Below are positions 273 to 21,106 of a DNA stretch of 52,661 nucleotides, piece after piece. This DNA comes from a virus (lineage: Duplodnaviria > Caudoviricetes). Every line of letters begins with the position of its first letter. Position 1 is the first letter of the stretch. The DNA lies in the IMG/VR virus record IMGVR_UViG_3300042541_000817, positions 1 through 52,661 of that record, one strand, 5' to 3'. The notes below the pieces were generated by a model, which saw only the letters and a list, made by a program, of their open reading frames with translations, was not told the origin of the DNA and did no database searches. The translations under genes were made by a program, and so were the position numbers.

Positions 273-536
273 TCACTCATCATCTTCTAAAAGATCGGTG
301 ATATCTTCAAACCCTGTATCCTCAATATCTAAACCTAAGATAAGCAGATCAAATGATTCGTTTATATATTTCTCTAGTGTTGGTGTGCTATTAATTATCC
401 CCTCGGCATATGCAAAAGCAAGTGGCAAACCAAGATCATTGTATACAAAGAAATCTGCCAACTCTTCATCATCTTTATAATTTAACCAGAGTTGTCCTAA
501 GATCAGGGCCTTACTTTCAAAAGTTGTTTTTGGCAT
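273..536 (-). CDS. hypothetical protein, acidic C-terminus
   Basis: ORF track; RBS GGAAGG; same orientation as neighbours. Confidence 0.75.
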   Translation of the reverse strand: MPKTTFESKALILGQLWLNYKDDEELADFFVYNDLGLPLAFAYAEGIINSTPTLEKYINESFDLLILGLDIEDTGFEDITDLLEDDE

Positions 537-723
537 AATTTGTACCTTCCTTAGTCTCTTTGGCTGATTCTGCTATTACCTGTAATCTATTATACACGAC
601 ATTGGGTTGGGACTTTGCTAAGTATTCCCCCACTAATTCCAAATCAACTCTGAGGTCGGAAATCTCATTGCCAAGTTTATTAGCAACCTTTTCCTCCGCT
701 GTCAGTATTCGTCTTATACGCAT
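517..723 (-). CDS. hypothetical protein
   Basis: ORF track; RBS GGAGGA; upstream TGATACAAT extended -10. Confidence 0.75.
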   Translation of the reverse strand: MRIRRILTAEEKVANKLGNEISDLRVDLELVGEYLAKSQPNVVYNRLQVIAESAKETKEGTNYAKNNF

Positions 724-750
724 AGTCCTCCTCCATTATCTATTGTATCA

Positions 751-820
751 AAAAGTAGGGGAAAGGGCAACCCCACGCTGCCCCTCCCCTGTAGGTCTAG
801 GAGACCCAGTCCTAGACCTG
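751..820 (-). terminator. two tandem GC-rich hairpins; the second is followed by a U-tract (intrinsic terminator)
   Basis: minus strand CAGGTCTAGGA-loop-TCCTAGACCTA, then AGGGGAGGGGCAGC-loop-GTTGCCCTTTCCCCT-ACTTTT. Confidence 0.65.
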
Positions 821-1177
821 CTCAACTAAAACTTTTGGAGCATATGCATTAATAAAGTCAACCCAGCCAATAACATTTCTATTATTGTCAATGATAGTTT
901 CTTTAGCAATGTCGATGACTACCGTCGTTTCCCCCAGGTCATAGTTACTCCCAGTGATTGAATAAATTCCAAACCCTGTCTCATCAAGAATAGAATCTTG
1001 CATAAGGTAACTAATCATCATACGATTGAAGTAAGCATAGTCTGACCACCTAGGCTTTGCATGCTGCAGGGCCATTGCTAGGTCCCGCTGCCATTCAGTC
1101 TCACCCCAGTGGCTATATAGGACCACATGGGCCTCATCTTCAACATCCTTAAATACAAAATTAATACGGGCTCCCAT
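812..1177 (-). CDS. conserved phage hypothetical protein (LYSHWG motif)
   Basis: ORF track; RBS AAGGAG; coupled to the upstream stop. Confidence 0.8.
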   Translation of the reverse strand: MGARINFVFKDVEDEAHVVLYSHWGETEWQRDLAMALQHAKPRWSDYAYFNRMMISYLMQDSILDETGFGIYSITGSNYDLGETTVVIDIAKETIIDNNRNVIGWVDFINAYAPKVLVEQV

Positions 1178-1323
1178 TAGTCATTCTCCTTAAAAGATAC
1201 GATTGATAGTTGGCTTAGTACTTCATTGAGCAGCGCTTCTTCATCTTCTGCCTCTGCTTCATATCTAAATGTCATGTAATCGCCTGTTGGCTCAAAGATA
1301 ACTTCTACTTTAAATTCTGACAT
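1177..1323 (-). CDS. small acidic hypothetical protein (48 aa, not in ORF track)
   Basis: MSEFKVEVIFEPTGDYMTFRYEAEAEDEEALLNEVLSQLSIVSFKEND; fills the gap with TAATG overlaps at both ends. Confidence 0.7.
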   Translation of the reverse strand: MSEFKVEVIFEPTGDYMTFRYEAEAEDEEALLNEVLSQLSIVSFKEND

Positions 1324-1646
1324 TATTCAATCTCACCTTCGAAATCAATAACTACCTTGCTAACTCGTCCGTCCTCGTTGAGTTGAACATAGACAGGGTA
1401 AAGTCCGTCACCATAGCCTGTGTTGAATACAACAGCAGAACCGATACCAAGTTCGCCATAAGAATTAGAAATGGTTGTGGCGCAAGCGCCGTGATAAGAA
1501 TAGTCGCCTTGCTTTCCGTCTAACTCGAATGCTTCTCCGTCATTGGTATTCCATTGGTCAAGGTAGCAGGGGTCGCCTACCATTGCTTGTCCGCTATCTA
1601 CCGCAAATGAACCTGCTAATACAAGTTCGTCTAATACATACTTCAT
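1323..1646 (-). CDS. DUF4241-like protein
   Basis: VDSGQAMVGDPCY and TGYGDGLYPV motifs. Confidence 0.65.
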   Translation of the reverse strand: MKYVLDELVLAGSFAVDSGQAMVGDPCYLDQWNTNDGEAFELDGKQGDYSYHGACATTISNSYGELGIGSAVVFNTGYGDGLYPVYVQLNEDGRVSKVVIDFEGEIE

Positions 1647-2098
1647 TGGGTCTCCTTTATTGTTAGTCCTACTAAGGTCATTTCATCAAGTGTAGCACAT
1701 TCTGTGCATTTTTCCAAATCGTGGTCTTGGAAGGAATCTCTAATAAGATTATCAGGGTCTTCCAGTTCAGCATGGCAGTTCTCACAGAAGTACCAGTTAT
1801 AGCCAATACGGATTTGAATGGTAGTGTCAGGTGGGCACGGTACCTCAGTAATGAAGTATCCTAATCTATTTACAAATCCCCAGCCAGACCAGATATAGGA
1901 GCCACCGTCATCGCCATCCCCATACATCCAGATTTTGTCAGGGGATTGAGATTTAACAAACTCTACCTCATCACCATATGTCTCAAACATAATGCCACCC
2001 TCCCCATTATCAAATGAGGCATTTGGGTCTATATGATTAGTGATTGGTTTGTATGTAGTTAGCCATTCATCAAATTCCATTTCAATAAACTTATCCAT
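1643..2098 (-). CDS. hypothetical protein with C-terminal CxxC..CxxC zinc ribbon
   Basis: ORF track; start moved to MDKFIEM; CENC/CTEC. Confidence 0.75.
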   Translation of the reverse strand: MDKFIEMEFDEWLTTYKPITNHIDPNASFDNGEGGIMFETYGDEVEFVKSQSPDKIWMYGDGDDGGSYIWSGWGFVNRLGYFITEVPCPPDTTIQIRIGYNWYFCENCHAELEDPDNLIRDSFQDHDLEKCTECATLDEMTLVGLTIKETQ

Positions 2099-2363
2099 TT
2101 TTCTTAGCCCTATCACTAATAGCAAAGGATAGTTGATATGTTAGGGCATATACCCATGACAGAGCGTCCATTTGGCCTTCCCAGTATTTACGCTCCATAG
2201 AATCCATTGCCTCTTCTGTATATTCTTCTTGCTCAACAGCGGCATTGTATTCTTTTTCAGCCTCAAGCATGAGGTTCTTAAGTTCACCATGGAGGATGTC
2301 TGTGCCTGATTCTCCAAGGTCAATGAGTTTCTGTAGTCGTGGTTCTAGGTCTGTTGTCATCAT
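2091..2363 (-). CDS. hypothetical protein
   Basis: ORF track; ATG 6 nt after the -10 of the promoter at 2370-2391. Confidence 0.75.
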   Translation of the reverse strand: MMTTDLEPRLQKLIDLGESGTDILHGELKNLMLEAEKEYNAAVEQEEYTEEAMDSMERKYWEGQMDALSWVYALTYQLSFAISDRAKKNG

Positions 2364-2569
2364 TACTCTAGTATACCCTCGGCCACTGACAAAATGTGGG
2401 AGGTGGCAATCATCTGTCCATTTAGAGATATATCCTCTATCTCCAAGTCCCAGTATTCATCTGAGTTCATATCTTCAATTAGTATCATTTCAGATTTGAG
2501 TTTCTCAGAATCTTGCTCCAGCGATAGGAGGTGCAGTTTCATGTATTCTTTAAGTGTGTTTAGGTCCAT
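2363..2569 (-). CDS. acidic hypothetical protein
   Basis: ORF track; tight packing. Confidence 0.7.
   Translation of the reverse strand: MDLNTLKEYMKLHLLSLEQDSEKLKSEMILIEDMNSDEYWDLEIEDISLNGQMIATSHILSVAEGILE
2370..2391 (-). promoter_or_regulatory. TGTCAG-N10-TAnnnT (PafBC/RecA-NDp-type) promoter
   Basis: TGTCAG tggccgaggg TATACT; one of 11 copies. Confidence 0.7.
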
Positions 2570-2572
2570 ATA

Positions 2573-2812
2573 TTAATTATAGGGGTTTGAGTTGATTTTT
2601 ACAACTTGGCGGGGTGTGACTTTAATCACAGGTTCATAGTCAGGGGTAGGATCCTCATCTACATGTGTAACAGTAGCATCCCATTTGCTTAATAGGATTA
2701 CATGAGATGATGCATGGCAAATGCAGGCGGGATCAATCTGAGGCTCAACTGATGCAGTAATCTCTATAAGAGCATCACAGTCAGTACATAGATAAGTAAA
2801 CTTAGTCCACAT
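2573..2812 (-). CDS. hypothetical Cys-containing protein
   Basis: ORF track; CTDC and CIC motifs. Confidence 0.65.
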   Translation of the reverse strand: MWTKFTYLCTDCDALIEITASVEPQIDPACICHASSHVILLSKWDATVTHVDEDPTPDYEPVIKVTPRQVVKINSNPYN

Positions 2813-2892
2813 TAGCAGTCCTCACAAGTAGTATCGCCATAGGTAATAGATACTCCACAGTCAGAGCACCAGGATTCATCATACATTCCCAT
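2812..2892 (-). CDS. 26-aa zinc-ribbon micropeptide (not in ORF track)
   Basis: MGMYDESWCSDCGVSITYGDTTCEDC; TAATG overlaps at both ends. Confidence 0.55.
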   Translation of the reverse strand: MGMYDESWCSDCGVSITYGDTTCEDC

Positions 2893-3053
2893 TACTCACC
2901 CCAATACTTTATAATAGTATTCATAGTCATATGGAGATTACAATCGCAATCCCCACCATTCATGTTCTCCATGAATTCAAAGTGCGATAGGTTGTCCTCA
3001 TAGATTTCTGTTACCAGTTCATCTATGGTGTATGGTTTGTGGGTTGTGGTCAT
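2892..3053 (-). CDS. hypothetical protein
   Basis: ORF track; start moved to MTTTHKPY (ATGA overlap, RBS AGGAG). Confidence 0.65.
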   Translation of the reverse strand: MTTTHKPYTIDELVTEIYEDNLSHFEFMENMNGGDCDCNLHMTMNTIIKYWGE

Positions 3054-3280
3054 ACTGTACAAGACTCCTGACATATGTGATAGGCTTTTAGAGATGATAC
3101 TGTCAATTCTAACATTTCGTCAGGGTATCTGTCAAGCACCCAATTAAGTGCTTCACCAGCAGTATTGAAGTCAGAGGCAGTGCTACTTTCTCCATAGCCT
3201 TGTATAGTTGCTTCCCAGCAGTCAACGCCACCAGGGGAGCAGGAGTATTCCATTTCGTATATTTCTACATTTAGGGTCAT
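3050..3280 (-). CDS. hypothetical protein
   Basis: ORF track; leaderless after TTGACA-N17-CATAAT. Confidence 0.7.
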   Translation of the reverse strand: MTLNVEIYEMEYSCSPGGVDCWEATIQGYGESSTASDFNTAGEALNWVLDRYPDEMLELTVSSLKAYHICQESCTV

Positions 3281-3286
3281 GTATTA

Positions 3287-3315
3287 ATTATGACAGGAAT
3301 CCTGGGAAATGTCAA
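3287..3315 (-). promoter_or_regulatory. sigma70/SigA-type promoter
   Basis: TTGACA-17 nt-CATAAT, 6 nt before ATG. Confidence 0.65.
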
Positions 3316-3320
3316 GTCTA

Positions 3321-3396
3321 TCGTAAAGATTTTTTGGTTTGATATTTTTGGGGATTTTTAATAGTCTTCGTAAAGATTTTTTAATTTGACATTTTT
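3321..3396 (+). repeat. 29-bp imperfect direct repeat TCGTAAAGATTTTTTnnTTTGAyATTTTT
   Basis: copies at 3321-3349 and 3368-3396. Confidence 0.75.
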
Positions 3397-3440
3397 ATGT
3401 CCGATATGTCTGAATTGTCCACACGTGCGGATTTTCTTTG

Positions 3441-3516
3441 CGATTCCGATGGGATTTGAACCCACGATCTCTACAGTGACAGTGTAGCGATTTAAACCAG
3501 ACTAATCTACGGAACC
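3441..3516 (-). tRNA. tRNA-Asp(GTC)
   Basis: cloverleaf: acceptor GGTTCCG/CGGAATC, anticodon stem CTACA/TGTAG with CT-GTC-AC loop, T-loop GTTCAAATC, discriminator G; no encoded CCA. Confidence 0.93.
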
Positions 3517-3522
3517 AAATGG

Positions 3523-3550
3523 TGAGCAGTTTTTATTCTTACTCAGGAAT
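3523..3550 (-). ncRNA. H-type pseudoknot motif copy 1
   Basis: ATTC-CTGAGTAA-GAAT-AAAAAC-TGCTC. Confidence 0.7.
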
Positions 3551-3558
3551 TTTTTTAA

Positions 3559-4575
3559 TTATGCAATCTGCAAAACATTTTGCACAACTTTTAGCAAACG
3601 ATTCTTTTCTGCATTGATAGCAGGGTCAAATCCGCTTGCGCTTGCAAGGATAGATTCGTTAGAACCACCACGAGCAGAACGATACCAATCAAGGCGTTCA
3701 GTTAGTGCATTGAAAGCACCCCACGCATTACCAGCAATCATTCCATTGAATTCGCCAGTGTAGATGTCATTGATAACATCAACCTTGTTTTCCCATTTCT
3801 TGAAAGCACCCTTAGAATCTTTTTCAGGCTTAGGGTATGCAGCAAGAATGATGTTGTTGAAATCTTGTGCGGTGATTTCTTTTTGAATCATAGCGTTAGC
3901 CATAACATCAAAAGAGTCCATGTACTTATGGGCAAGACCCAAAGTTTCACGAGCAACGGCAACCTTACCAGAAGCGGTCTGAGTGTGGCGAATCTTGAAA
4001 GATTGCTTGACACCATTCTTTTTCTTAGTAGTGTTTAGTGCAAGGTTAAGAGTGTTAGCGCATACAACACGAACAGGTGTGATACTTGCTTGAATAGCGA
4101 TTGAGCCATCGTGTGATGTATTGATAAGTAGATAAGTCTTGACCTTATCTGCAACACCGCTAGGGTCTAAGATTGTTTCACGCTCTAGTGCTAATGCACC
4201 GAATACGACACGACCACCCTTGATTGAACCAGCGGTTTCCCAACGACCTCCGCCATCGAGAATGTTATCACCGAATGAAAATAAATCTTCATTCTGCATA
4301 ACATGATAACGCTCACCAACGACACCAAGAATGTCGGTCTGAGAGTTGTCAGTAGGATTGGTACGCAATACATACTGATAGTTTTTGTCACTTGTTAAGT
4401 GTGATGGGGTTTCCAAATCCTCAAGACGAACATTCCAATTAGAAAGGCTTGCTAGGTCTAGCATTTCTTTTGTTGTTTTTTCCTCTGTGAATACGGTACC
4501 CAATCCATGCCAAGCGGGTTCACGAAATGATGCGAATGAAGCCTTACCATTTTGTGTTTCGATTTCATGTGCCAT
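3559..4575 (-). CDS. DUF932 family phage/plasmid-like protein
   Basis: REPAWHGLG, ETAGSIKGG and NTSHDGS..TPVRVVCANTL motifs; start moved to MAHEIE with RBS AAGGAG. Confidence 0.88.
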   Translation of the reverse strand: MAHEIETQNGKASFASFREPAWHGLGTVFTEEKTTKEMLDLASLSNWNVRLEDLETPSHLTSDKNYQYVLRTNPTDNSQTDILGVVGERYHVMQNEDLFSFGDNILDGGGRWETAGSIKGGRVVFGALALERETILDPSGVADKVKTYLLINTSHDGSIAIQASITPVRVVCANTLNLALNTTKKKNGVKQSFKIRHTQTASGKVAVARETLGLAHKYMDSFDVMANAMIQKEITAQDFNNIILAAYPKPEKDSKGAFKKWENKVDVINDIYTGEFNGMIAGNAWGAFNALTERLDWYRSARGGSNESILASASGFDPAINAEKNRLLKVVQNVLQIA

Positions 4576-4606
4576 GAGTTTTCTCCTTTTTTGTTGTTGA
4601 ATTTTA

Positions 4607-4736
4607 AGTATAGCAGGACGGGCTGACAAATGCAAATCGGGATAGTTAAACATGGGACAAATTGGACATTCCTTAATGTGATTAAATTCACATGATCGTA
4701 AAAGTTATCCACAGACTTATCCACAGGCCCCACGTG
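4607..4736 (-). promoter_or_regulatory. regulatory cassette: PafBC-type promoter, GGACA-N4-GGACA, CRP site, two DnaA boxes, CACGTG
   Basis: 4607-4628; 4655-4668; TGTGA-N6-TCACA 4677-4692; TTATCCACA 4705-4713 and 4717-4725; CACGTG 4731-4736. Confidence 0.75.
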
Positions 4737-4759
4737 TAAATTTTGCGGGAATTAAAAGT

Positions 4760-4787
4760 TGAGCAGTTTTAAAACATGCTCAGGTTT
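4760..4787 (-). ncRNA. H-type pseudoknot motif copy 2
   Basis: AAAC-CTGAGCAT-GTTT-TAAAAC-TGCTC. Confidence 0.7.
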
Positions 4788-4802
4788 ATTAGTAGCCCCC
4801 TA

Positions 4803-5231
4803 CTAAATATCTATACGGTCCACACTGGATGATAACCATGTGACATCATCTGAATTGTAAGATACAGTATCGAAATCAATATCATGAATTAGATTCTGTG
4901 CACTTTCTTCATCTCGTGCATTGACTGTAATTGAATAAAGAACTGTGACTTCCAATTCAAATTCTTTTGTTAACTCAAATCCGCAAATATCTGCAATTGC
5001 TTGTGCAGTCTCTTCTGAAATGGTACCGTCGTCCAAGTTTTCTAAGGTCCACTCTTGCATTTCATTACGCATACGAGAGCGCTCTGCAGCCTCACCATAT
5101 GAGCGCTGAGTTACTTTTTGAATGTGCTCTTCAAGTTGTTGAATGCGTTCTTTGTTTTGTACTAGAGTAGTTTCTAAAAACTCTCGTGTCATATAGTGTG
5201 TGTCTGTTGCTACTGTGATTGGTTGGTCCAT
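4803..5231 (-). CDS. acidic coiled-coil hypothetical protein
   Basis: ORF track; RBS GAAAGAGG; promoter at 5263-5292. Confidence 0.8.
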   Translation of the reverse strand: MDQPITVATDTHYMTREFLETTLVQNKERIQQLEEHIQKVTQRSYGEAAERSRMRNEMQEWTLENLDDGTISEETAQAIADICGFELTKEFELEVTVLYSITVNARDEESAQNLIHDIDFDTVSYNSDDVTWLSSSVDRIDI

Positions 5232-5262
5232 GGGGGCCTCTTTCTGTTAGTTGGTTAATTCA

Positions 5263-5292
5263 ATTGTACTGGGTGCCACTGACATTTGTCAA
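5263..5292 (-). promoter_or_regulatory. promoter with both TTGACA -35 and TGTCAG-N10-TACAAT
   Basis: TTGACA aa TGTCAG tggcacccag TACAAT. Confidence 0.7.
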
Positions 5293-5305
5293 GATCCCTT
5301 GCGGG

Positions 5306-5332
5306 GAGTAGTTTATACACATACTCAGGTGT
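5306..5332 (-). ncRNA. H-type pseudoknot motif copy 3
   Basis: ACAC-CTGAGTAT-GTGT-ATAAAC-TACTC; compensatory change in stem 2. Confidence 0.7.
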
Positions 5333-5387
5333 CTTATCTCAGGCATACCTACACATCAAGGCGTAGGGCTTAGCAGAGATAAATTAT

Positions 5388-5813
5388 TTAGAGATAACGA
5401 GCAACCGCATTGTAAGTGCTGGTGCTAACTACTTCCTCATCTGTCATCTTGAGAATACGAATTGCGTTAGACATTTCATCTACCATCTCGTTGTAGGTGT
5501 GTCTGTGGATTTGCTCAAAATTACGCTCAGGTTCAGCAGGAAAGTTTGTTCCGCTTTCTACCTTGATGTCAAAATCAACATTGAGAGTTTTGTTCCACTC
5601 ACGATAGTTCGTGCGTAGATTTTCTGCCTTTGAGATTTGACTAATAGCATACTTTACTAATTGTTCGTTCCAAGCCTTTTGTGCTTCTTGGAACTTTGCT
5701 TCGTTCTCATCTTGTGTTTTGTAGTTAGCCTCTAGTTCTGCTAACTTAGTTTCTAGTGCGTTGATAACTCTCTGTGTAGGTATCTTTACGCTAATTGCTT
5801 TTCCTCTTGCCAT
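5388..5813 (-). CDS. conserved phage hypothetical protein (coiled-coil)
   Basis: ORF track; RBS AAGGA. Confidence 0.8.
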   Translation of the reverse strand: MARGKAISVKIPTQRVINALETKLAELEANYKTQDENEAKFQEAQKAWNEQLVKYAISQISKAENLRTNYREWNKTLNVDFDIKVESGTNFPAEPERNFEQIHRHTYNEMVDEMSNAIRILKMTDEEVVSTSTYNAVARYL

Positions 5814-5853
5814 TGGGTCTGTTTCCTTTTCTTTGTTTTGTTAGGGGGTTGGT

Positions 5854-5891
5854 TGAGCAGTTTATTTATTATCTCATGCTCAGGAGATAAT
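5854..5891 (-). ncRNA. H-type pseudoknot motif copy 4
   Basis: ATTATCTC-CTGAGCAT-GAGATAAT-AAATAAAC-TGCTC (8-bp stem 1). Confidence 0.72.
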
Positions 5892-5898
5892 TGTCAAA

Positions 5899-6063
5899 CT
5901 ACTTGGCTGTCCAAGTTGTGTATCGTGGCTTGCCATTTACATCTAACTTGACACGAACATTTCCGTTAGCCTGTGGTGTGATTTCTGTGATGATACCACT
6001 TACCTTTGACTTTTGAGTTGTGTAGGTGTCGCCTACTTTGTAAGTTGCGGTTGCTACTGACAT
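5899..6063 (-). CDS. 54-aa SH3/KOW-like small beta protein (not in ORF track)
   Basis: MSVATATYKVGDTYTTQKSKVSGIITEITPQANGNVRVKLDVNGKPRYTTWTAK; RBS GAAGGG; own TTGACA-N18-CATAAT promoter. Confidence 0.75.
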   Translation of the reverse strand: MSVATATYKVGDTYTTQKSKVSGIITEITPQANGNVRVKLDVNGKPRYTTWTAK

Positions 6064-6161
6064 TTGTTTCCTTCTTTCTGTTAGGGTTTTGCTTACTATC
6101 TAATTATGACATTTCTTGGGAAAAATGTCAAGTCTAATTTGAGATTTCTCAAATAGTGAGA

Positions 6162-6332
6162 TTACTTGCTGGTCTTGACCATAGCCAAACGGCGTGAGCC
6201 ATTTGCTAGAACTAGACTAACTCTGGTAAGTTTATTAGACATTGGCTCAAAACTAGCAATACGACCTGTAATGCCTGTCTTGCTTGTCGTGAATAAATCA
6301 CCAATTTGGTATTGGTATCCTCCAAGGGTCAT
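6162..6332 (-). CDS. 56-aa SH3/KOW-like small beta protein, paralog of 5899-6063 (not in ORF track)
   Basis: MTLGGYQYQIGDLFTTSKTGITGRIASFEPMSNKLTRVSLVLANGSRRLAMVKTSK; RBS GAAAGG. Confidence 0.75.
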   Translation of the reverse strand: MTLGGYQYQIGDLFTTSKTGITGRIASFEPMSNKLTRVSLVLANGSRRLAMVKTSK

Positions 6333-6420
6333 TGTTCTGCCTTTCTGTTGTGGGGTTTTGCTTACTATCTAATTCTAGCAGAAAAATGTCAAAAATACCA
6401 ATTCAGCGGAGGATTTGGGG

Positions 6421-6484
6421 TGTGTCCTTAATCACATCTTAAAGGCGTGTCGTGACTTGACAGATCAAAGATTTTGCCCACGTG
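6421..6484. promoter_or_regulatory. CRP-like site, GACACGCC (WhiA-like) and CACGTG
   Basis: TGTGT-N6-TCACA 6421-6436; GGCGTGTC 6444-6451; CACGTG 6479-6484. Confidence 0.6.
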
Positions 6485-6566
6485 CCCTTTCGGGATTACT
6501 ACTGATACAAAAATAAAATAAATAAAAAAAATGCTAAGAACATCCATTGTGTTGAATTCATTTATC

Positions 6567-7289
6567 TCATTTCTTACTCGCAGAAAAAATTATGTCACTC
6601 TTAGAGTATACACAAAGTGAGCAAGAAACGCAAGCGCTTCCATTTGTTGAGATAAGCGGAATTTGTTTATTATTCTCAGGACACTTAGCAGCAGGCTTAC
6701 CAATCATTTCTTTTACATCTGCTTGACCAATAGCAAAATTCTTAGCAAGGTATGCCATGCGTACGCCACTATTAATTTTTAGGTCTACTGCGGTTTTTAC
6801 ATTCTCGCTATCTGCAGAAAAGTATAGGCTTAGATTATCAATACCCTTGAGCATTAGAGCAGCACTTGCTACACGAGTATAAACCCAAAATTGAATTTCA
6901 GGATGATTAAGTATTACATGCTTCCATGCGAATGTGTAGGTATCGTTAAAAAAGTCTCCGTCCCAATGAATACGGAATAGTTTAGGAGCGTCTTTCTTAT
7001 TGCAGTCTGCAACAAAATCAACAATCATTTCTTCAAGCAATGCTTTCATAGTATCATGGTCTGCGTCTTTAAGCAATGCCCAATTGTGTAATAGATTAGT
7101 TTTTACTGCGGGGAATAGTCTTTCGAGTTTTCCTGCGTAGCATACGCTTTCACATACGCTAGTGGCACCAGGGCACGAGAAAGCCTTTCCAGCAGGTAAT
7201 CCAAATGTGTTTGCGATACTTGCTTGTTTTCCATTTTTTGTGACAAGGTTAGCCACCTTCCTATCTTTAGAGCGTTTTAGTTTAGTCAT
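6567..7289 (-). CDS. Gp88-family protein (Cys-cluster, radical-SAM-like)
   Basis: FGLPAG..SCPGATSVCESVCYA, FRIHWDGDF, WVYTR and C-terminal CP..CxxCxLC motifs. Confidence 0.75.
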   Translation of the reverse strand: MTKLKRSKDRKVANLVTKNGKQASIANTFGLPAGKAFSCPGATSVCESVCYAGKLERLFPAVKTNLLHNWALLKDADHDTMKALLEEMIVDFVADCNKKDAPKLFRIHWDGDFFNDTYTFAWKHVILNHPEIQFWVYTRVASAALMLKGIDNLSLYFSADSENVKTAVDLKINSGVRMAYLAKNFAIGQADVKEMIGKPAAKCPENNKQIPLISTNGSACVSCSLCVYSKSDIIFSASKK

Positions 7290-7295
7290 GGGGTT

Positions 7296-7439
7296 CTACT
7301 TTCTTTCTTTAATTATAGCGGAGGGGTCTGACAATTTTTTTCTATTGTAGGTTTTCTTTGACGGAACACTTGAGGCAGCATTAGATCTACGCAACTCCAT
7401 AAGTCTGCGTAATTCCTCGGGTGTTTTCTTTTGTGTCAT
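7296..7439 (-). CDS. 47-aa very basic protein (not in ORF track)
   Basis: MTQKKTPEELRRLMELRRSNAASSVPSKKTYNRKKLSDPSAIIKERK; leaderless after TTGACA..TAAGAT. Confidence 0.65.
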   Translation of the reverse strand: MTQKKTPEELRRLMELRRSNAASSVPSKKTYNRKKLSDPSAIIKERK

Positions 7440-7484
7440 AAACTAATCTTAGCATACATGGGATAAAAATGTCAAATCTTAAAA

Positions 7485-7542
7485 TGTGATAAAGATCACA
7501 CGACGCACGTGGGCATTTTTATGCGGGGAAGTGCATAAAAAT
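7485..7542. promoter_or_regulatory. CRP site, CACGTG and terminator-like hairpin
   Basis: TGTGA-N6-TCACA 7485-7500; CACGTG 7506-7511; ATTTTTATGC/GCATAAAAAT inverted repeat. Confidence 0.6.
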
Positions 7543-7550
7543 ACTTTTAG

Positions 7551-7793
7551 TTATTCTATTGTTTCAATAAAAACATACAACGGAATTAAATCAGTGTAAG
7601 AATAATTGGCAAAGTCTAATTCATCAAATTCATTCTTAGTCTGAATACTCCAATTATCTGCAGTTGAATCACTTTCAATAAACATAACTTCAACAATGTC
7701 ATCACCGACTTTAATTAAATCGCCAATCATTAATTGATCTGGCTTGAGTTCATCTGCAAAGATTAGTTCCATGCTATTTATTGTATCAGACAT
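7551..7793 (-). CDS. acidic hypothetical protein
   Basis: ORF track; RBS AGGAGG. Confidence 0.75.
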   Translation of the reverse strand: MSDTINSMELIFADELKPDQLMIGDLIKVGDDIVEVMFIESDSTADNWSIQTKNEFDELDFANYSYTDLIPLYVFIETIE

Positions 7794-7794
7794 T

Positions 7795-8010
7795 TTACTT
7801 TCCTCCTACTTTTCCGTCACGATAAAAAATCTTGGTGTGCATTTTGCCATTAGGCTCTGAAAAATTGTAGGTTGCATAGTCATCTGCAAATCCCCAATCC
7901 ACAATTTTATTCCACTCGGTCACTGCGCTAATTGCGTCTGAATAACGACCAACCCAATGAGGTGAAGTATCATTATCATAGGTTGCAGTAATTGCGTATG
8001 AGTATTCCAT
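7795..8010 (-). CDS. hypothetical protein (DxGFAxDY..PxG..TK motif)
   Basis: ORF track; start moved to MEYSY; similar to the N-half of 35511-35966. Confidence 0.75.
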   Translation of the reverse strand: MEYSYAITATYDNDTSPHWVGRYSDAISAVTEWNKIVDWGFADDYATYNFSEPNGKMHTKIFYRDGKVGGK

Positions 8011-8011
8011 T

Positions 8012-8308
8012 TTAGTATTCCCTTTCAATAAGCCACGCATTTAGGTGGTGTTGTTCAATTATTGCATAAGCGGGGGCAGTAGTCAAACCCTTATAGGTTA
8101 TTCCTTCGGGCATAGGTATTTCCAAGTCCCATAGTCCTGCGTCATTTACTGCGTCAATAGCCTCAATACATACCGATACCATAGACTTAGGCACTGGCGG
8201 GTAGTGATTAGCAGATAAGTGAATACCTATCTGAGTTTCTAAATCAAGATGAATACCAAGATTATCAAGTGTTCCGTCTGCCATTTCTGTTGCAAAATTA
8301 CTTCCCAT
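8012..8308 (-). CDS. conserved actinophage-type hypothetical protein (HLxxNHYPPVP, HHLxAW)
   Basis: ORF track. Confidence 0.8.
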   Translation of the reverse strand: MGSNFATEMADGTLDNLGIHLDLETQIGIHLSANHYPPVPKSMVSVCIEAIDAVNDAGLWDLEIPMPEGITYKGLTTAPAYAIIEQHHLNAWLIEREY

Positions 8309-8541
8309 TATCGTGCTTCTCCGCTCATTAGTAGTTCAGGCTCACTTAGTAGCCCATTATCCCAAATAACACTTCCGTCATAGTCTAATAGTAATTCGTA
8401 GGGATTACACTCGCAAGTTTCTGAGTCAAAATCCTCGCCATTTCCCCAATACAAATTACCTTGACCATTACAAGCATTACAATTCTGTATCGCTCTTAGT
8501 GCGTATTCTAATTTATCCATTTTTTCCTTCTTTCTGTTCAT
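8308..8541 (-). CDS. DnaJ-type CxxCxGxG zinc-finger protein
   Basis: CNACNGQG...CECN; start at 8541 (leaderless) or 8520 (RBS). Confidence 0.7.
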   Translation of the reverse strand: MNRKKEKMDKLEYALRAIQNCNACNGQGNLYWGNGEDFDSETCECNPYELLLDYDGSVIWDNGLLSEPELLMSGEAR

Positions 8542-8590
8542 ACTGAAATCCTATCAGATAGGGCTGACATTTTCAACCCTACCCAACCAC

Positions 8591-9088
8591 TCACCAAGAC
8601 GAATGGTACGAAAAGGACAAATTGGACAATTCGGGTAGAGCAAGAATACGCTCTAATTGTTCAATAGTATTCTCTAGGTCACGCCAATACCATTGATCGA
8701 TATCTGTTCCACCAAAGAAAAATCCTTCTTGTGGTGGCAATAGGCTAGGGTCTTTATTTTCTAAAGAGTGCTTACAAATCGCAAGCAATTCTATTAATTT
8801 ATCTTGTGATACATAGTAGTCACCGCAGTCGTCAATTCCTTTTTGTACATTTTTGACAAACCAATTATGAATCTGATTAGCCTTGCGCCAATAAGCACAA
8901 GTCACTTCTACGCTTGCGCCATAGATATCTGTTGCGACATTGGATAATTGTGTTAATTCCATTAGGTTGTTGAATTGCGGATATACCGCTTCAGGTGAGT
9001 CATAAGATAATTCGTCATTATCTCTTAGTGCGTTCCAATTCACTTTTTCCAAGTGTTTCTTGGCTAGTAAGTACATATCTAATCCCAT
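8591..9088 (-). CDS. conserved phage hypothetical protein (MGLDMYL, YWRKANQIHNWF)
   Basis: ORF track; RBS GAAGG; motif common in phages. Confidence 0.85.
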   Translation of the reverse strand: MGLDMYLLAKKHLEKVNWNALRDNDELSYDSPEAVYPQFNNLMELTQLSNVATDIYGASVEVTCAYWRKANQIHNWFVKNVQKGIDDCGDYYVSQDKLIELLAICKHSLENKDPSLLPPQEGFFFGGTDIDQWYWRDLENTIEQLERILALPELSNLSFSYHSSW

Positions 9089-9116
9089 TGGATTACCTTC
9101 TTTCTTTTAGGCTTCT

Positions 9117-9227
9117 AGCCTATCATTTCCTACTGACAAAATCAAACCGACACGCCGTAAAATCTGGGGGAATATTAAAATGTGTCGTAAATCACCCTGT
9201 GTATAACCCTGTGGATAACCCCACGTG
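9117..9227 (-). promoter_or_regulatory. regulatory cassette: PafBC-type promoter, GACACGCC, CRP-like site, two DnaA boxes, CACGTG
   Basis: 9117-9138; 9149-9156; 9181-9196; TGTGTATAA 9198-9206 and TGTGGATAA 9210-9218; 9222-9227. Confidence 0.72.
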
Positions 9228-9234
9228 AAATTTT

Positions 9235-9261
9235 TGAGCAGTTTTAGATCATGCTCAGGAT
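9235..9261 (-). ncRNA. H-type pseudoknot motif copy 5
   Basis: ATC-CTGAGCAT-GAT-CTAAAAC-TGCTC. Confidence 0.68.
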
Positions 9262-9268
9262 TTGAAAA

Positions 9269-9370
9269 CTAGAATCCGTTTTCTTTTATGTCTTTAATTG
9301 CTAATCGCAATAAATAAAATGTTGAAATTAGCAAAGCAAGTTGCACAAGTGTTGTTAAAAATCTGCTCAC
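9269..9370 (-). CDS. 33-aa single-TM peptide (not in ORF track)
   Basis: GTG start overlapping the upstream TGA; MSRFLTTLVQLALLISTFYLLRLAIKDIKENGF. Confidence 0.5.
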   Translation of the reverse strand: MSRFLTTLVQLALLISTFYLLRLAIKDIKENGF

Positions 9371-9567
9371 GCATTTACCTCAATTCCTTTATAGCAAGCA
9401 AGAGCAAATCTATTTGCGTCAAATCTTGGATTATCAGTTTCAAACATTAGAGAAAATTCATCTACCAAATCAGCAAATAAAATTTCTCCTTGCTCATCAA
9501 AAACAGAAGTAGCAAAGTAATTGCTAAGAATTTCAGCAGTTGCGACATAGTCTTTTCGTGTCATCAT
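9367..9567 (-). CDS. hypothetical protein (TRKDY...DNPRFDxxRF family)
   Basis: ORF track; similar to the C-half of 35511-35966. Confidence 0.8.
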   Translation of the reverse strand: MMTRKDYVATAEILSNYFATSVFDEQGEILFADLVDEFSLMFETDNPRFDANRFALACYKGIEVNA

Positions 9568-9656
9568 TTATGAGCACACTCGCTTTCTATTTCGTGTCCA
9601 AATTCATCTACTAATTCCTCGTAGATTTCGTCTAAGTATTCTAAGTAATCGCTCAT
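9564..9656 (-). CDS. 30-aa highly acidic peptide (not in ORF track)
   Basis: MSDYLEYLDEIYEELVDEFGHEIESECAHK; overlaps both neighbours. Confidence 0.6.
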   Translation of the reverse strand: MSDYLEYLDEIYEELVDEFGHEIESECAHK

Positions 9657-9862
9657 TATTCAGCCACCTTTAGAGTAGCCCAAGAATTGCCCTTATTGAC
9701 TTCATCAAGGACAGGACCGAGAGCAGGCGCAAGCAAATCTTTTAGCATACTTTCAAGAAAGTGAATTTGAATTTCACTATCTAATTCTAATAGTTGCTTA
9801 GCAGTTGGATTATTTTCATCTACCTCAGTTATGAAGTGGAGAGAGTGTTTAATTGTTTTCAT
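9656..9862 (-). CDS. hypothetical protein
   Basis: ORF track. Confidence 0.7.
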   Translation of the reverse strand: MKTIKHSLHFITEVDENNPTAKQLLELDSEIQIHFLESMLKDLLAPALGPVLDEVNKGNSWATLKVAE

Positions 9863-9881
9863 TTATTTTATTTCCTATTCT

Positions 9882-10073
9882 TTAATTTGAGGGGATAAGT
9901 GTGCCACGAAGTGTGCCACGAATTGAGAGAGTGTCGCAAGACATTTTGACCGCAACGCCTACTGGTAATTGAGTAGGATAAGTTGAGATAAATTGAGCAA
10001 CCGCACCTTTAGAGGGCAGGCTAATTTTTTTAGTAGAACCATTAAAGGTTTCTAGTGTTATAGTGTAAGTCAT
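9882..10073 (-). CDS. hypothetical protein, paralog of 12333-12524
   Basis: ORF track; RBS GAAAGGA; PafBC-type promoter at 10106-10127. Confidence 0.75.
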   Translation of the reverse strand: MTYTITLETFNGSTKKISLPSKGAVAQFISTYPTQLPVGVAVKMSCDTLSIRGTLRGTLIPSN

Positions 10074-10128
10074 TTTGACTTCCTTTCGTTTTTAGGTATA
10101 AGACTATCTTATACTATGGGGCTGACAA

Positions 10129-10341
10129 TTAGTCTGCGTTTTTTACCGCTAGATAGCGATAGGTATCCTTTAGGTTAAATATTGAGGGATAGTGTGGGCG
10201 AACCTGAACCCGATAAGTATCACAATTAGCATACCAAACCTTATCGGTTTTTTCTGCGTCGATTATTTCGCCATTTATTGAGCGAGAATTGTAAGTCTTG
10301 CCAATTAGCAGACTTTCTACATTATAGACATTTGCTGACAT
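10129..10341 (-). CDS. hypothetical protein, paralog of 10998-11198
   Basis: ORF track; PafBC-type promoter at 10373-10394. Confidence 0.75.
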   Translation of the reverse strand: MSANVYNVESLLIGKTYNSRSINGEIIDAEKTDKVWYANCDTYRVQVRPHYPSIFNLKDTYRYLAVKNAD

Positions 10342-10372
10342 AGTGTCACTTCCTTTTTTTCTTTAGATAGTA

Positions 10373-10595
10373 AGTATAGCATTTTTGGCTGACATTATCA
10401 AATCCAAATTCGGACATTTCCGACATTTTGAATGTGATACTCATCACACCGATTTTGCTATTTATTTAATTGTATAAGAGAATACTACCAGATAAATCTC
10501 AAAAAGTCAAGGCGACACGCCGTAAATGCGAGATTTATTTATGTGACCTTAAACACATTTTGCTTGTGGATAACCTGTGGATAAGTGCACGTGCA
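10373..10595 (-). promoter_or_regulatory. regulatory cassette: PafBC-type promoter, GGACA repeat, two CRP sites, second promoter with GACACGCC, two DnaA boxes, CACGTG
   Basis: 10373-10394; 10412-10425; 10433-10448; 10514-10521; 10542-10557; TGTGGATAA 10565-10573 and 10576-10584; TGCACGTGCA 10586-10595. Confidence 0.75.
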
Positions 10596-10809
10596 AAATT
10601 TGCAAAGTTTTTCTCTGCAATTTTGTTTTTATTTATTTTATTTCTTTACACTTAAGTAGTCGCTAATATTTACATACACAATGTATGCAACATAGGCTAA
10701 TACTGAAACAAAAATAATTTTCATTTATGATCTCCAATTTCATCTAGCAATTCCCAAAGTATTGGCTCTAATTCTTTAGCAACCAAATCTAATTTATCTT
10801 GTAAGTTTT

Positions 10810-10998
10810 TCATAGTGGCAAAATCTCTTTTCCATAGTATCCAACTGCTTCAACTAAGTTAATTACACTTTTGTATTCATTACAATTAAAGCAAATTCTA
10901 TTTTCTTTATTCATAGTGGTTGAGCAATAAACGCAGATATTATCTTGAAGGTTAAATCCTAACGCTTCAATTTCATTAAGGGACATAGATATTTTCAT
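10810..10998 (-). CDS. zinc-ribbon hypothetical protein
   Basis: CVYC...CFNC. Confidence 0.7.
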   Translation of the reverse strand: MKISMSLNEIEALGFNLQDNICVYCSTTMNKENRICFNCNEYKSVINLVEAVGYYGKEILPL

Positions 10999-11198
10999 TA
11001 GTTATCCTCAACCTTCACGCTAATAGTAGCCCAATTATTGCCATTAAAGCGAATAGCAAAAGCCTTATAGCCTTCGGGAGTATAGACATCGCTTCTCTCA
11101 GTAGAGTAGTTAATTTCACCATTAAGGTGTTTTCTCACAAGAGAGCGAGGATAGTATTGCTGACCATAGAGCAGGTCATTTATTGAATAAGTTTTCAT
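10998..11198 (-). CDS. hypothetical protein, paralog of 10129-10341
   Basis: ORF track; RBS GAAAGG; PafBC-type promoter at 11232-11253. Confidence 0.75.
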   Translation of the reverse strand: MKTYSINDLLYGQQYYPRSLVRKHLNGEINYSTERSDVYTPEGYKAFAIRFNGNNWATISVKVEDN

Positions 11199-11221
11199 TT
11201 AAGTTATTACCTTTCTTTTCT

Positions 11222-11398
11222 TTACTTAGTAAGTCTATCAGAAGCCTCTGACATTTCCTTACACTTATTAGGGTTATCCCACCAAGGGAAGCCCTCATGG
11301 TAGGTAGCAGGGGCAAGGACTACCTGACCGCAAGGGCATAGGTTCATCATGCCTTTAGGGTAGTCGTGTATAGTAGCGAACCTATTCCAAATACTCAT
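11222..11398 (-). CDS. 58-aa hypothetical protein (not in ORF track)
   Basis: MSIWNRFATIHDYPKGMMNLCPCGQVVLAP...; TAATG coupling. Confidence 0.6.
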   Translation of the reverse strand: MSIWNRFATIHDYPKGMMNLCPCGQVVLAPATYHEGFPWWDNPNKCKEMSEASDRLTK

Positions 11399-11604
11399 TA
11401 GTTAGCAACCTGACAAGAACCGCTAAGAGATTTCCAAGCAGACCAACCGCTAAGGCGGTCTGGGTCTTCTACCCAATAAGAGGTTATGTCTAATTCGCAA
11501 TTAGAGCAAGTCGCATAGCGGTCATACTCATCACTTACGATAGATGATTTAATTGCTTCGTGTGTAGAGAAGCCTAGTTTTTTTAGTAGTGTTTGTTCGT
11601 TCAT
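11398..11604 (-). CDS. hypothetical CxxC protein, paralog of 12016-12195
   Basis: ORF track; RBS GAAAGG; PafBC-type promoter at 11639-11660. Confidence 0.75.
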   Translation of the reverse strand: MNEQTLLKKLGFSTHEAIKSSIVSDEYDRYATCSNCELDITSYWVEDPDRLSGWSAWKSLSGSCQVAN

Positions 11605-11656
11605 TTTAGAACCAACCTTTCTTTTTCTTTATGTAGCAAGTCTAGCAGAGGGGTCT

Positions 11657-11756
11657 GACAAATCGGGGCATTTATTCGCTAGGCTCACTGTGATTTATCT
11701 CACATTTATTTGCTAGGCTCACTGCCCGATTTATCCCTTATTTAGTTTTTCTTACT
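11657..11756 (-). ncRNA. candidate ~100-nt two-fold symmetric small RNA
   Basis: own promoter (TTGCTT-N17-TAGACT, 11762-11790); 22-nt direct repeat held between an outer and an inner stem; no ORF. Confidence 0.55.
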
Positions 11757-11761
11757 CCGTA

Positions 11762-11967
11762 AGTCTAACATAAAAATCTCAAAAAAGCAAATCGACACGC
11801 CGTACTACAAGTGTGTTTCTTATCACATTAGTTATCAACAGCCTGTGGATAAGTCCACGTGTGACACGTGCAAATTCGGACATTATGGACATGTGATTAG
11901 TATCACAAAAATAGTTTTCCGACACGCCCGAGAAACAGGTCAAAATGTCAGTGGTCTGTGTTAGACT
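11762..11967. promoter_or_regulatory. divergent promoter hub with mirrored regulator sites
   Basis: leftward promoter 11762-11790; GACACGCC 11794-11801; CRP-like 11812-11827; DnaA boxes 11832-11840 and 11844-11852; CACGTG 11856-11861 and 11865-11870; GGACA repeat 11878-11891; CRP 11892-11907; GACACGCC 11921-11928; rightward TGTCAG-N10-TAGACT 11946-11967. Confidence 0.75.
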
Positions 11968-12015
11968 TACAGTAGTAAGAAAATGAGAAACTCTCATTAA
12001 GAAAGGTGGTCTCAA

Positions 12016-12195
12016 ATGACTACACTAACAATAACAAAATGCGTAGAGCATAAGCCTATGCTATCCGCTATCTCCAATGTAGGAGATGAGCAATTCACTT
12101 TCTGTATGGATTGTGAAAATAACATAGAGCGTTGGTATAACGATACCGACCCTGAAAGACTACCAATGTGGTCAGATTGGAGTGTATCTCTATGA
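12016..12195 (+). CDS. 59-aa CxxC protein, paralog of 11398-11604 (not in ORF track)
   Basis: RBS GAAAGGTGG; FTFCMDCENNIERWYNDTDPERLPMWSDW. Confidence 0.75.
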   Translation: MTTLTITKCVEHKPMLSAISNVGDEQFTFCMDCENNIERWYNDTDPERLPMWSDWSVSL

Positions 12196-12332
12196 TAAAC
12201 TCAGTTAAAACTATTGATTGCTCTACCTGTTATGGTAGAGGCTACATATTTTTCGGGGACAATGATGATTGTGCCATTGAAACATGTGATTGCGTATTAA
12301 ATGATGAACTAAATGTAGATTGGATTAACTAA
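12192..12332 (+). CDS. 46-aa CxxCxGxG zinc finger, paralog of 8308-8541 (not in ORF track)
   Basis: MINSVKTIDCSTCYGRGYIFFGDNDDCAIETCDC...; ATGA overlap. Confidence 0.7.
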   Translation: MINSVKTIDCSTCYGRGYIFFGDNDDCAIETCDCVLNDELNVDWIN

Positions 12333-12524
12333 ATGATAAATGTAACACTAACAACAACAACAGGCTCCACTAAGGGCATGAGGTTTGATACTAAGAATGA
12401 TGTCCTGCTATTCATTGAGAAGATGTCCGATACACTGCCTATCGGTACAGCAGTGAATATTGACGCACCACTCATTGGAATACATAGTGGGTGGATACAG
12501 GGTAAGCGTCTACAAAACACATAG
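12333..12524 (+). CDS. hypothetical protein, paralog of 9882-10073
   Basis: ORF track; followed by a terminator. Confidence 0.75.
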   Translation: MINVTLTTTTGSTKGMRFDTKNDVLLFIEKMSDTLPIGTAVNIDAPLIGIHSGWIQGKRLQNT

Positions 12525-12542
12525 CCTTATCTATTAAAAGAT

Positions 12543-12572
12543 TAGTGGGTCTATGGGCTCACTATTTTTTTT
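12543..12572 (+). terminator. intrinsic terminator
   Basis: TAGTGGGTC-TATG-GGCTCACTA-TTTTTTTT. Confidence 0.8.
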
Positions 12573-12676
12573 GATCATTTTTTGTTTATTTATGTATCAT
12601 ACATCTAAACAAAATATTCCAATTTACTCTAATTAAGAAATCTGAAAACAAATCTGAATTATGATATACTTAAACC

Positions 12677-13249
12677 ATGAGAAAACAATACACACGAGTC
12701 CAATACGACGAAAACGGTTTAAAGCAATGCACAAATTGCCAGGAATACAAAGAGACATCTAACTTCCATAAATACTCTAAGGCTCAAGATAGTTTGAAAC
12801 CTTGGTGTAAGGTTTGTGTAAGAGAATACGACTTGGCAGAAGATGATCCAAAAAGGGTTATGCCTAGAAAAAAGCAGGGGGAATTAATTCATTGTCGTAG
12901 ATGTGAAAAATATCTAGATAAATCTAACTTCTGGCGTGGCTCAACATATTGTCGTCCATGCAAGGTTTATATAGGTATAAACTCTAACCTTAGAAATAAA
13001 AACCTGACTATAGAAAAATATTCAGAATTAGAAAAATCTCAAAATGGGGTTTGTAAAATTTGCGGGAATACAGATTATAAGCGTTTATCCGTAGACCATG
13101 ATCATGCATGCTGTCCTGGAGAAAAAACTTGTGGAAACTGCACAAGAGGCTTATTGTGCTCTAGATGCAATAGAGCCCTAGGCTCTGTTAATGATGATGT
13201 AAAACTGTTACAAACTATGATACGATATTTAAATGGGGATATTAAATAA
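12677..13249 (+). CDS. recombination endonuclease VII-type (His-Me finger) nuclease with N-terminal zinc fingers
   Basis: QNGVCKIC..LSVDHDH..RGLLCSRCNRALG; two N-terminal CxxC..CxxC repeats typical of homing endonucleases. Confidence 0.85.
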   Translation: MRKQYTRVQYDENGLKQCTNCQEYKETSNFHKYSKAQDSLKPWCKVCVREYDLAEDDPKRVMPRKKQGELIHCRRCEKYLDKSNFWRGSTYCRPCKVYIGINSNLRNKNLTIEKYSELEKSQNGVCKICGNTDYKRLSVDHDHACCPGEKTCGNCTRGLLCSRCNRALGSVNDDVKLLQTMIRYLNGDIK

Positions 13250-13444: not shown

Positions 13445-13604
13445 GGATGAAAATCTATTTCTGGAATCAAAACCAATACCTGAAACAGACAACATGGGTA
13501 GAGAAAAGTTTTGGGAAGATCTAGGAAGACCAGAATATGAAAACCTGGCTGTAAAAATATTTTCAGAAACTTGTTGCAAAGATTGTAGTTGCAAAAATGG
13601 ATAG
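13407..13604 (+). CDS. hypothetical protein ending in CCKDCSC
   Basis: ORF track. Confidence 0.7.
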   Translation: MGIGFLDNLENAWDENLFLESKPIPETDNMGREKFWEDLGRPEYENLAVKIFSETCCKDCSCKNG

Positions 13605-13767: not shown

Positions 13768-13814
13768 AAGTATTTAGATCCGTCTGACTCTTCTAAGTTT
13801 CCAGGGCAAGAAAA

Positions 13815-21105: not shown

Positions 21106-21106
21106 A

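Follow-up and report, generated by a model that had tools for sequence, protein, structure and literature searches.

The DNA analysed here, referred to as the window throughout, is the linear IMG/VR virus record IMGVR_UViG_3300042541_000817 (52,661 bases, estimated completeness 48%), and this work concerns an island of small genes near its left end together with a recurrent promoter element, TGTCAG-N10-TAnnnT, found within that island. The G+C content (GC) of the window is 38% overall and ranges from 34 to 43% along its length. Its genes include those for the portal, a prohead protease, a major head-type protein, tail fibre-like proteins and a class II ribonucleotide reductase, as well as numerous 2OG-Fe(II) oxygenase paralogues and a single tRNA-Asp, which lies in the island:

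273..12015, minus strand: island of about 34 mostly small open reading frames (ORFs), served by both promoter classes described here, TGTCAG and TTGACA
3440-3516, minus strand: tRNA-Asp (GTC), inside the island, just downstream of the DUF932 gene

Only DUF932, GP88, DUF4241 and three PHROGs without an assigned function were recognised among the island genes, and the tRNA was the sole match of an Rfam search over positions 1-14000 of the window.

The original prediction had placed eleven TGTCAG-N10-TAnnnT sites in this region, each upstream of a gene and in the same orientation. We found all eleven to be exact matches to the pattern, and the placement upstream of and co-oriented with a gene holds for 11/11 of them. 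The whole window contains 13 matches, as compared to 0.78 +/- 0.82 expected from 100 dinucleotide-preserving shuffles, among which the maximum was 4 and none (0/100) reached 13, while the reversed pattern, used as a control, gave 0 matches in the window. Rescanning the window with any one hexamer position relaxed, or with a spacing of 9 or 11, revealed no extra plausible site. At nine of the eleven sites an ATG follows 22-48 nucleotides (nt) past the -10 element, with a ribosome site of the AGGAG/GAAAGG type before most of these start codons, whereas at the remaining two (2370 and 8548) the ATG lies only 6 nt past the -10, a leaderless-type geometry. Seven of the eleven sites carry an extended -10 (TGn). 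The sites, termed the -26 class here after the approximate position of the hexamer, are as follows (ORF lengths in amino acids, aa):

2370..2391, minus strand: -26-class core TGTCAG-N10-TATACT; ORF 2091-2363 (90 aa), ATG 6 nt past the -10
4607..4628, minus strand: -26-class promoter with TGn, upstream of the DUF932 gene
5263..5292, minus strand: hybrid of TTGACA with an 18-nt spacer and TGTCAG-N10-TACAAT, upstream of ORF 4803-5231 (142 aa)
7312..7333, minus strand: -26-class promoter, upstream of the GP88-family gene 6567-7289
8548..8569, minus strand: -26-class promoter with TGn; ORF 8308-8541 (77 aa), ATG 6 nt past the -10
9117..9138, minus strand: -26-class promoter with TGn, upstream of ORF 8591-9088 (165 aa)
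10106..10127, minus strand: -26-class promoter, upstream of ORF 9882-10073 (63 aa)
10373..10394, minus strand: -26-class promoter with TGn, upstream of ORF 10129-10341 (70 aa)
11232..11253, minus strand: -26-class promoter with TGn, upstream of ORF 10998-11198 (66 aa)
11639..11660, minus strand: -26-class promoter with TGn; ORF 11398-11604 (68 aa), leftward half of a divergent pair
11946..11967, plus strand: -26-class promoter with TGn; ORF 12016-12195 (59 aa), rightward half of the divergent pair
10319..10340, minus strand: exact match additional to the eleven, overlapping the ATG of ORF 10129-10341; the same string occurs in the relatives G002 and G003
38393, minus strand: exact match additional to the eleven, antisense within plus-strand genes

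The match at 10319 is probably retained coding sequence, and neither it nor the one at 38393 was counted as a promoter. The DUF932 gene likely starts at an ATG about 31 nt past the -10 (near 4575; counted by eye) rather than at the upstream ATG at 4653.

Relatives of the phage were collected through the GP88 gene of the island, which yielded at least 596 contigs in IMG/VR, and 80 loci (L009-L088; 1.34 Mb in total) with a protein 81-93% identical were kept as the family set. The prediction had suggested looking for the motif in related phages, and the array is indeed there, as 80/80 loci carry two or more sites. Of its occurrences in these loci, 679 are on the strand of the genes and 70 on the opposite one, as compared to 3 and 3 control matches. 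The GP88 gene has a promoter of the same type in 24/80 relatives, and in all five complete relatives (100-115 kb) most sites cluster within a single 8-12 kb segment. When any one hexamer base was changed (18 variants), 23 matches at most were obtained, and spacings of 7-9 and 11-13 gave 2-29 matches each, against 679 for TGTCAG at a spacing of 10; the hexamer, at each of its six positions, and the 10-nt spacing are thus essentially invariant in the family. The TGTCAG array is confirmed as a real, family-wide promoter class. Two related patterns, TGTAAG-N10-TAnnnT (47 matches) and TGTCAT-N10-TAnnnT (49 matches), are over-represented in the 80 loci only on the strand opposite to the island genes and may represent conserved coding sequence.

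The logo of the 471 unique sites reads A-W-W-TGTCAG-(T/A/C, never G)-S-S-C-...-T-G-n-T-A-n-A-A-T, with an A/T-rich stretch before the hexamer (A at -3 in 82%) and TGn in 298/471 sites. An A is found seven nt past the -10 in 80% of the unique sites; if this conserved A is the start site, the hexamer would stand at about -28 to -23. At the -35 position itself, 310/471 sites match TTGACA at three or fewer of six bases, and hybrids bearing TTGACW there number 50/471. The family also uses ordinary promoters of the form TTGACW-N16-18-(TGn)TAnnnT, of which those with TGn number 13 in the complete relative G005, 11 in G003 and 4 in the window, against 2, 0 and 0 in the respective controls. Many of these canonical promoters have a leaderless layout, with an ATG 5-9 nt past the -10, and they precede genes both outside and within the island. 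The two classes differ only in the upstream element, which is TTGACA at -35 in one and TGTCAG at about -26 in the other.

Such an arrangement is known from the promoters activated by PafBC, the RecA-NDp promoters of Mycobacterium and other Actinobacteria (PMC8635444, PMC11804915, PMC6789036). According to PMC8635444, the in vivo motif is tGTCgg(N10)tA(N3)T, with its 5' part at -23 to -28, its 3' part being the SigA -10 and no -35 element, and GTC is strictly conserved in recA promoters across actinobacteria; the same paper, together with PMC11804915, describes how PafBC bound to single-stranded DNA (ssDNA) inserts between DNA and sigma domain 4, a mechanism called sigma adaptation. The consensus given in the original prediction agrees with that in PMC8635444, and the window sites do resemble PafBC-type sites, as had been proposed, in sequence, spacing and inferred position. 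The phage promoters share with them the GTC-containing hexamer TGTC(A/G)G (in 11/11 window sites and the 679 family sites), the distance of exactly 10 nt from hexamer to TAnnnT within a 22-nt bipartite motif, a housekeeping-type -10 and, as in those 310 of the 471 sites, the lack of a -35 consensus. On the other hand, they lie in a phage genome and not in a host DNA-repair regulon, and their hexamer is invariant at six bases, whereas the published motif strongly conserves GTC only.

We also searched metagenomic contigs for recA genes in which TGTCRG-N10-TAnnnT precedes a start codon and the conserved RecA N-terminal motif. At least 119 recA loci with GC from 0.44 to 0.735 were found, 14 of the 119 among the matches listed having a GC below 0.53, and the matches listed contain 88 unique promoters, with TGTCAG in 50 and TGTCGG in 38. 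Within these 88 promoters position 7 is T in 58% and A in 28% (86% T/A) and positions 8-10 are G/C-rich, and the phage sites have T/A at position 7 in 82% and S-rich positions 8-10 although the phage has only 38% GC. In contrast to the phage sites, these recA promoters lack TGn and the A/T stretch. At one of the low-GC loci, L146 (44% GC), the gene order is pgsA, cinA, a ClgR-like gene (its ClgR match being below the curated cut-off), recA and recX, with TGTCAG-N10-TATCTT before recA; this recA promoter and its leader are retained in L208 (52% GC) despite a diverged spacer. Presence of PafBC in low-GC lake actinobacteria would be indicated, by proxy, by such recA promoters on contigs of actinobacterial type with 44-52% GC.

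Taken at face value, the resemblance suggests that the island promoters are read by host polymerase under sigma adaptation by PafBC of the host or by a PafBC-like WYL activator close to it, which we regard as the best explanation at hand, giving it as much credit as doubt. In this scenario, the host holoenzyme with the housekeeping sigma would read the sites when adapted by PafBC, which would bind the -26 element once loaded with ssDNA, and TGTCAG would stand where a -35 box is otherwise required. The TTGACA/-10 promoters would need the polymerase alone and would serve replication, recombination and other genes, while the -26 class would put an island of about 12 kb of small accessory genes under the ssDNA alarm of the host. 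What would set off this alarm is ssDNA arising at the ends of phage DNA, during replication and recombination of the phage, or through nucleases; the family encodes RecA, Cas4-like, RuvC-like, SNase and endonuclease VII proteins, which are candidate sources of it. The broader proposal, that lake phages of 100-115 kb have rewired an accessory island onto the host's PafBC without a transcription factor of their own for it, is put forward with slightly more doubt than credit. As to the earlier claim that the TGTCAG promoters drive the early region, the claim stands only in part: canonical promoters share this putatively early island, and a sister phage uses -35-type promoters for the same genes.

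The host is probably an actinobacterium, as we infer from the WhiB gene of the complete relatives, from leaderless promoters and from homologues found almost only in actinophages. Leaderless promoters are in keeping with actinobacteria; the portal is 47% identical to those of Streptomyces phages of Stanwilliamsviridae, and 386 of the 391 records with GP88 homologues are actinophages. WhiB was above the cut-off in 5/5 complete relatives, and Corynebacterium was the only positive among 14 control genomes; whiB has been described as exclusive to Actinobacteriota and as an indicator of actinophages (PMC10202952). The window sequence is present in lake-water runs from many studies. Because the window has 38% GC and is not mycobacteriophage-like, Mycobacterium smegmatis could serve as a surrogate host at best. 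A more direct link to a host was sought in a 4,054-base contig (L094 = G006:C46) which encodes the family's WhiB (67% identical) and which had been assigned to a 700-kb Saccharibacteria metagenome-assembled genome, G006. We rejected this link, as the contig is likely a misbinned phage fragment: G006 has no other WhiB, and the motif is not enriched in it (7 matches versus 3 in the control). Searching for the host with the phage RecA returned only phage relatives among the best 120 homologues, and a comparison of this RecA to cluster representatives yielded RecA clusters of 30-40% identity, which were useless for choosing a host. The divergent RecA of the complete relatives (L100 of G005, 56892-57905, minus strand) is about 35% identical to cluster representatives of RecA length. 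The complete relatives also carry genes for a pyrimidine-dimer glycosylase, a Dps/ferritin, a thioredoxin, HSP20 and an HslV-like peptidase.

As an alternative, the original prediction had offered a PafBC-like activator encoded by the phage itself, and had proposed a search for WYL-domain genes in the rest of the genome. This alternative found no support: a WYL domain was detected in 0/5 complete relatives, and no sigma factor, PafB-like helix-turn-helix (HTH) or MotA/AsiA-like family exceeded the Pfam cut-off in the 120 of 158 G005 ORFs that were scanned (33 ORFs below 60 aa and five crossing stretch borders were left out), nor did any such reader family among the 89 ORFs of the window. The G005 Pfam scan revealed an endonuclease VII with a fused HTH of the LacI type, as well as an HTH_17 match below threshold, and among 59 G005 ORFs compared to PHROGs, WhiB was the sole transcription factor named. 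Small proteins without a recognised fold are possible readers.

Several observations weigh against control by host PafBC, and one of them comes from the sister phage G008 (103.5 kb, 95% complete). It belongs to the same family, as its proteins are 79% (RecA), 85% (DnaB), 83% (ribonucleotide reductase) and 77% (portal) identical to those of G005, and it possesses the island genes (GP88 70% and DUF932 77% identical; island at about 93-103.5 kb, minus strand, loci L312-L317). Still, G008 has a single TGTCAG match, and by inspection its island genes stand behind TTGAYW-N17-(TGn)TAnnnT promoters. The -26 class is therefore a gain, or a loss, inside the family, and since many small ORFs of the TGTCAG clade are absent from G008, it could have arrived with a clade-specific phage gene; an equally good explanation of the difference is that G008 has a different host. 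No array was found in six cultured actinophages either (Coruscant, Yaboi, Birchlyn, D29, Anthony and KentuckyRacer; 4 matches versus 8 in the control). Furthermore, invariance at six bases exceeds that of the published PafBC motif, and the recA promoters take A (50) or G (38) at position 5; such strictness would rather be expected of a reader dedicated to the element, which might be encoded by the phage. Many sites may also fire without any activator, because most have an extended -10 and 50/471 have TTGACW. Finally, by our own estimate, a chance match is expected at about 5e-4 per recA gene in the scan, so single low-GC recA matches count only if they are conserved between diverged contigs. 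Two further candidates were discarded: an apparent swap to a -35 promoter at the GP88 gene in relatives, where the seven pattern matches proved on inspection to be coding sequence, so that the only real swap is that relative to G008, and an enrichment of GTCAAA-N8 in G008, which was scattered noise.

A rival explanation is that a phage-encoded factor, either a small DNA-binding protein or the family's WhiB-like protein bound to sigma region 4, reads TGTCAG and recruits or adapts host polymerase in the fashion of MotA/AsiA of phage T4, with the island forming a phage-timed "middle" class after genes expressed from canonical promoters. Invariance of hexamer and spacing is typical of dedicated phage systems, and two clearly separate promoter classes coexist in one genome; absence of the -26 class from G008 despite its island genes, the numerous clade-only small ORFs of unknown function, the lack of the motif in cultured actinophages of PafBC-bearing hosts and the WhiB-family gene of all five complete relatives point the same way. 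However, for a reader unrelated to PafBC, the shared hexamer, the 10-nt spacing and the preferences at positions 7-10 would be an unexplained coincidence, estimated by us at <1e-4 for hexamer and spacing alone. WhiB occurs also in G008 and G009, both without the array, and, as described above, the scans revealed no WYL domain in the complete relatives and no sigma, MotA/AsiA-like or HTH candidate over the cut-off in the 120 G005 ORFs. We consider a phage-encoded reader unlikely, albeit worth serious attention.

It is also conceivable, though we find it still less probable, that these are extended -10 promoters used unaided by the host's housekeeping holoenzyme, TGTCAG being no activator site but an operator or accessory site, for instance for a repressor of phage or host origin which turns the island off, or for a different host regulator. 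TGn at 7/11 window and 298/471 family sites and a -35 box at 50/471 would fit this idea, as would a second element, TGTCCG/TGTCGG-TTT (described below), which shows that further TGTC-type sites exist in the family. Yet a 10-nt register fixed over 471 unique, diverged promoters argues that the element is read together with polymerase, and it replaces a -35 box that is missing in 310/471; it is also asymmetric and always in a single orientation, and no repressor-like HTH gene was recognised in the window and G005 scans. That the pattern is not regulatory at all, and instead the remnant of a repeat, the end of a mobile element or a side effect of coding sequence, seems to us hardly credible. One of the 13 matches, that at 10319, is indeed retained in relatives as the first codons of a gene; nevertheless, the eleven sites all lie between genes or at the start of one, share the orientation of the gene that they precede and keep a constant distance to ribosome sites and start codons. 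Their flanks are unrepeated, conservation being limited to the hexamer, the -10 and the C/G-rich positions 8-10, and the strand bias of 679 to 70 also speaks against such an explanation.

Comparison with other known systems helps to place the -26 class. In T4 middle promoters both the reader, MotA, and the sigma remodeller, AsiA, are supplied by the phage. As in those promoters, the -35 is replaced here by a box which precedes a good -10 by about 10-13 nt, and an ordinary class exists in the same genome. The T4 mechanism is mentioned as "sigma appropriation" in PMC8635444. In the lake phages, however, the box sequence is different, the element equals that of a host activator, and no homologue of MotA or AsiA was found over the Pfam cut-off in the 89 window and 120 G005 ORFs. 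Promoters with TGn are of the Gram-positive/actinobacterial housekeeping sigma type and need no fixed upstream hexamer; TGnTAnnnT is shared by seven of the eleven window sites and by the family's canonical promoters, but in the present sites neither TGTCAG nor its distance to the -10 varies. Stoperators of cluster A mycobacteriophages are 13-bp asymmetric repressor sites with TGTCAAG and a 5' half of the GGTGG type. They have in common with the present sites an asymmetric TGTCA element repeated in one orientation between small actinophage genes, and GP88 homologues occur there as well. The differences are that the 5' flank is A/T-rich here rather than GGTGG, that the element is locked to a -10, that no HTH repressor was recognised in the scans, and that D29 and Anthony have 0 pattern matches. 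Other WYL activators (DriD of Caulobacter, SiwR of M. smegmatis and those of the BrxR/CapW type), which sense ssDNA or nucleotides and are tied to DNA damage and phage defence, form a possible alternative class of host reader.

Should the island indeed be controlled by host PafBC, an alarm of the cell for ssDNA, signalling DNA damage and possibly serving against phages, would have become the timing cue of phage expression. This would represent a new route of takeover, by host sigma adaptation instead of phage-made sigma appropriation, and these would be the first phage promoters dependent on a host WYL activator; PafBC biology would also extend from mycobacteria to genome-streamlined lake actinobacteria. 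Our literature search found no description of PafBC-type promoters in a phage genome, and PMC12848934 cites Rafique et al. (2025, ACS Infect Dis), a study of PafBC and resistance to mycobacteriophages which is possibly relevant to this novelty. Because the family is abundant in lakes (with at least the 596 related contigs mentioned above), the mechanism would bear on phage-host dynamics of dominant freshwater bacteria. The reading can be put to a direct test, since an in vitro transcription system with PafBC and strains deleted for pafBC are available in M. smegmatis (PMC11804915, PMC8635444). Moreover, the sister lineage, in which these genes still stand behind -35 promoters, allows the states before and after the change to be compared in nature. 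Were the element read by a phage protein instead, that protein would be a novel sigma adaptor copying the DNA specificity of PafBC.

The account from which this work started did not include the canonical promoters of the island, of which there are about seven TTGACA-N17/18 promoters on the minus strand of the window. Those assigned by a match to the consensus only are the following:

7446..7475, minus strand: canonical-class TTGACA-N18-TGnTAAGAT; the ATG of ORF 7296-7439 lies 6 nt past the -10
5868-5897, minus strand: canonical-type TTGACA, one of three promoters within 5868..6392 which precede ORFs 5388-5813, 5899-6063 and 6162-6332
6103-6131, minus strand: canonical-type TTGACA, one of the same three
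6364-6392, minus strand: canonical-type TTGACA, one of the same three
3106-3135, minus strand: canonical-type TTGACA, one of a pair within 3106..3315 which precedes ORFs 2892-3074 and 3050-3280
3287-3315, minus strand: canonical-type TTGACA, second of this pair
10482..10510, minus strand: canonical-type TTGACT-N17-TGnTAGTAT

Two of the genes served by these promoters, 5899-6063 (54 aa) and 6162-6332 (56 aa), both on the minus strand, are small paralogues with a similar leader and one canonical TTGACA promoter each. Contigs of relatives from RNA libraries pile up at 5868-6392, and in one run a contig of depth 323 covers 5900-6185. Relatives 90-99% alike were present in four RNA-library runs, which covered 25, 28, 17 and 26 of 30 window bins; these data consist of contigs, maybe including DNA, some of which span promoters, and they are blind to start sites and strand. 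A shared contig end at 9568 was considered as a promoter and rejected, as it coincides with a gene junction.

A second recurrent element, TGTCCG or TGTCGG followed by TTT within 0-2 nt, is located about 20-60 nt upstream of several promoters and may be the site of a regulator. The window contains 8 occurrences as compared to 3 in the control, among them those at 9152, 10416 and 11882 (minus strand), 14951 and 15432 (plus strand) and 15394 (minus strand). In G008, the sister phage without the TGTCAG class, it occurs 7 times versus 0 in the control, with positions at 98115, 100965 and 103198-103256 (minus strand).

Outside the island, about nine 2OG-Fe(II) oxygenase paralogues with DUF6065-like genes interleaved occupy 21092-21709 and 32631-39579 on the plus strand. 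A tail fibre-like protein encoded at 29641-31191, also on the plus strand, bears an N-terminal Mtd_N domain (major tropism determinant N-terminal domain).

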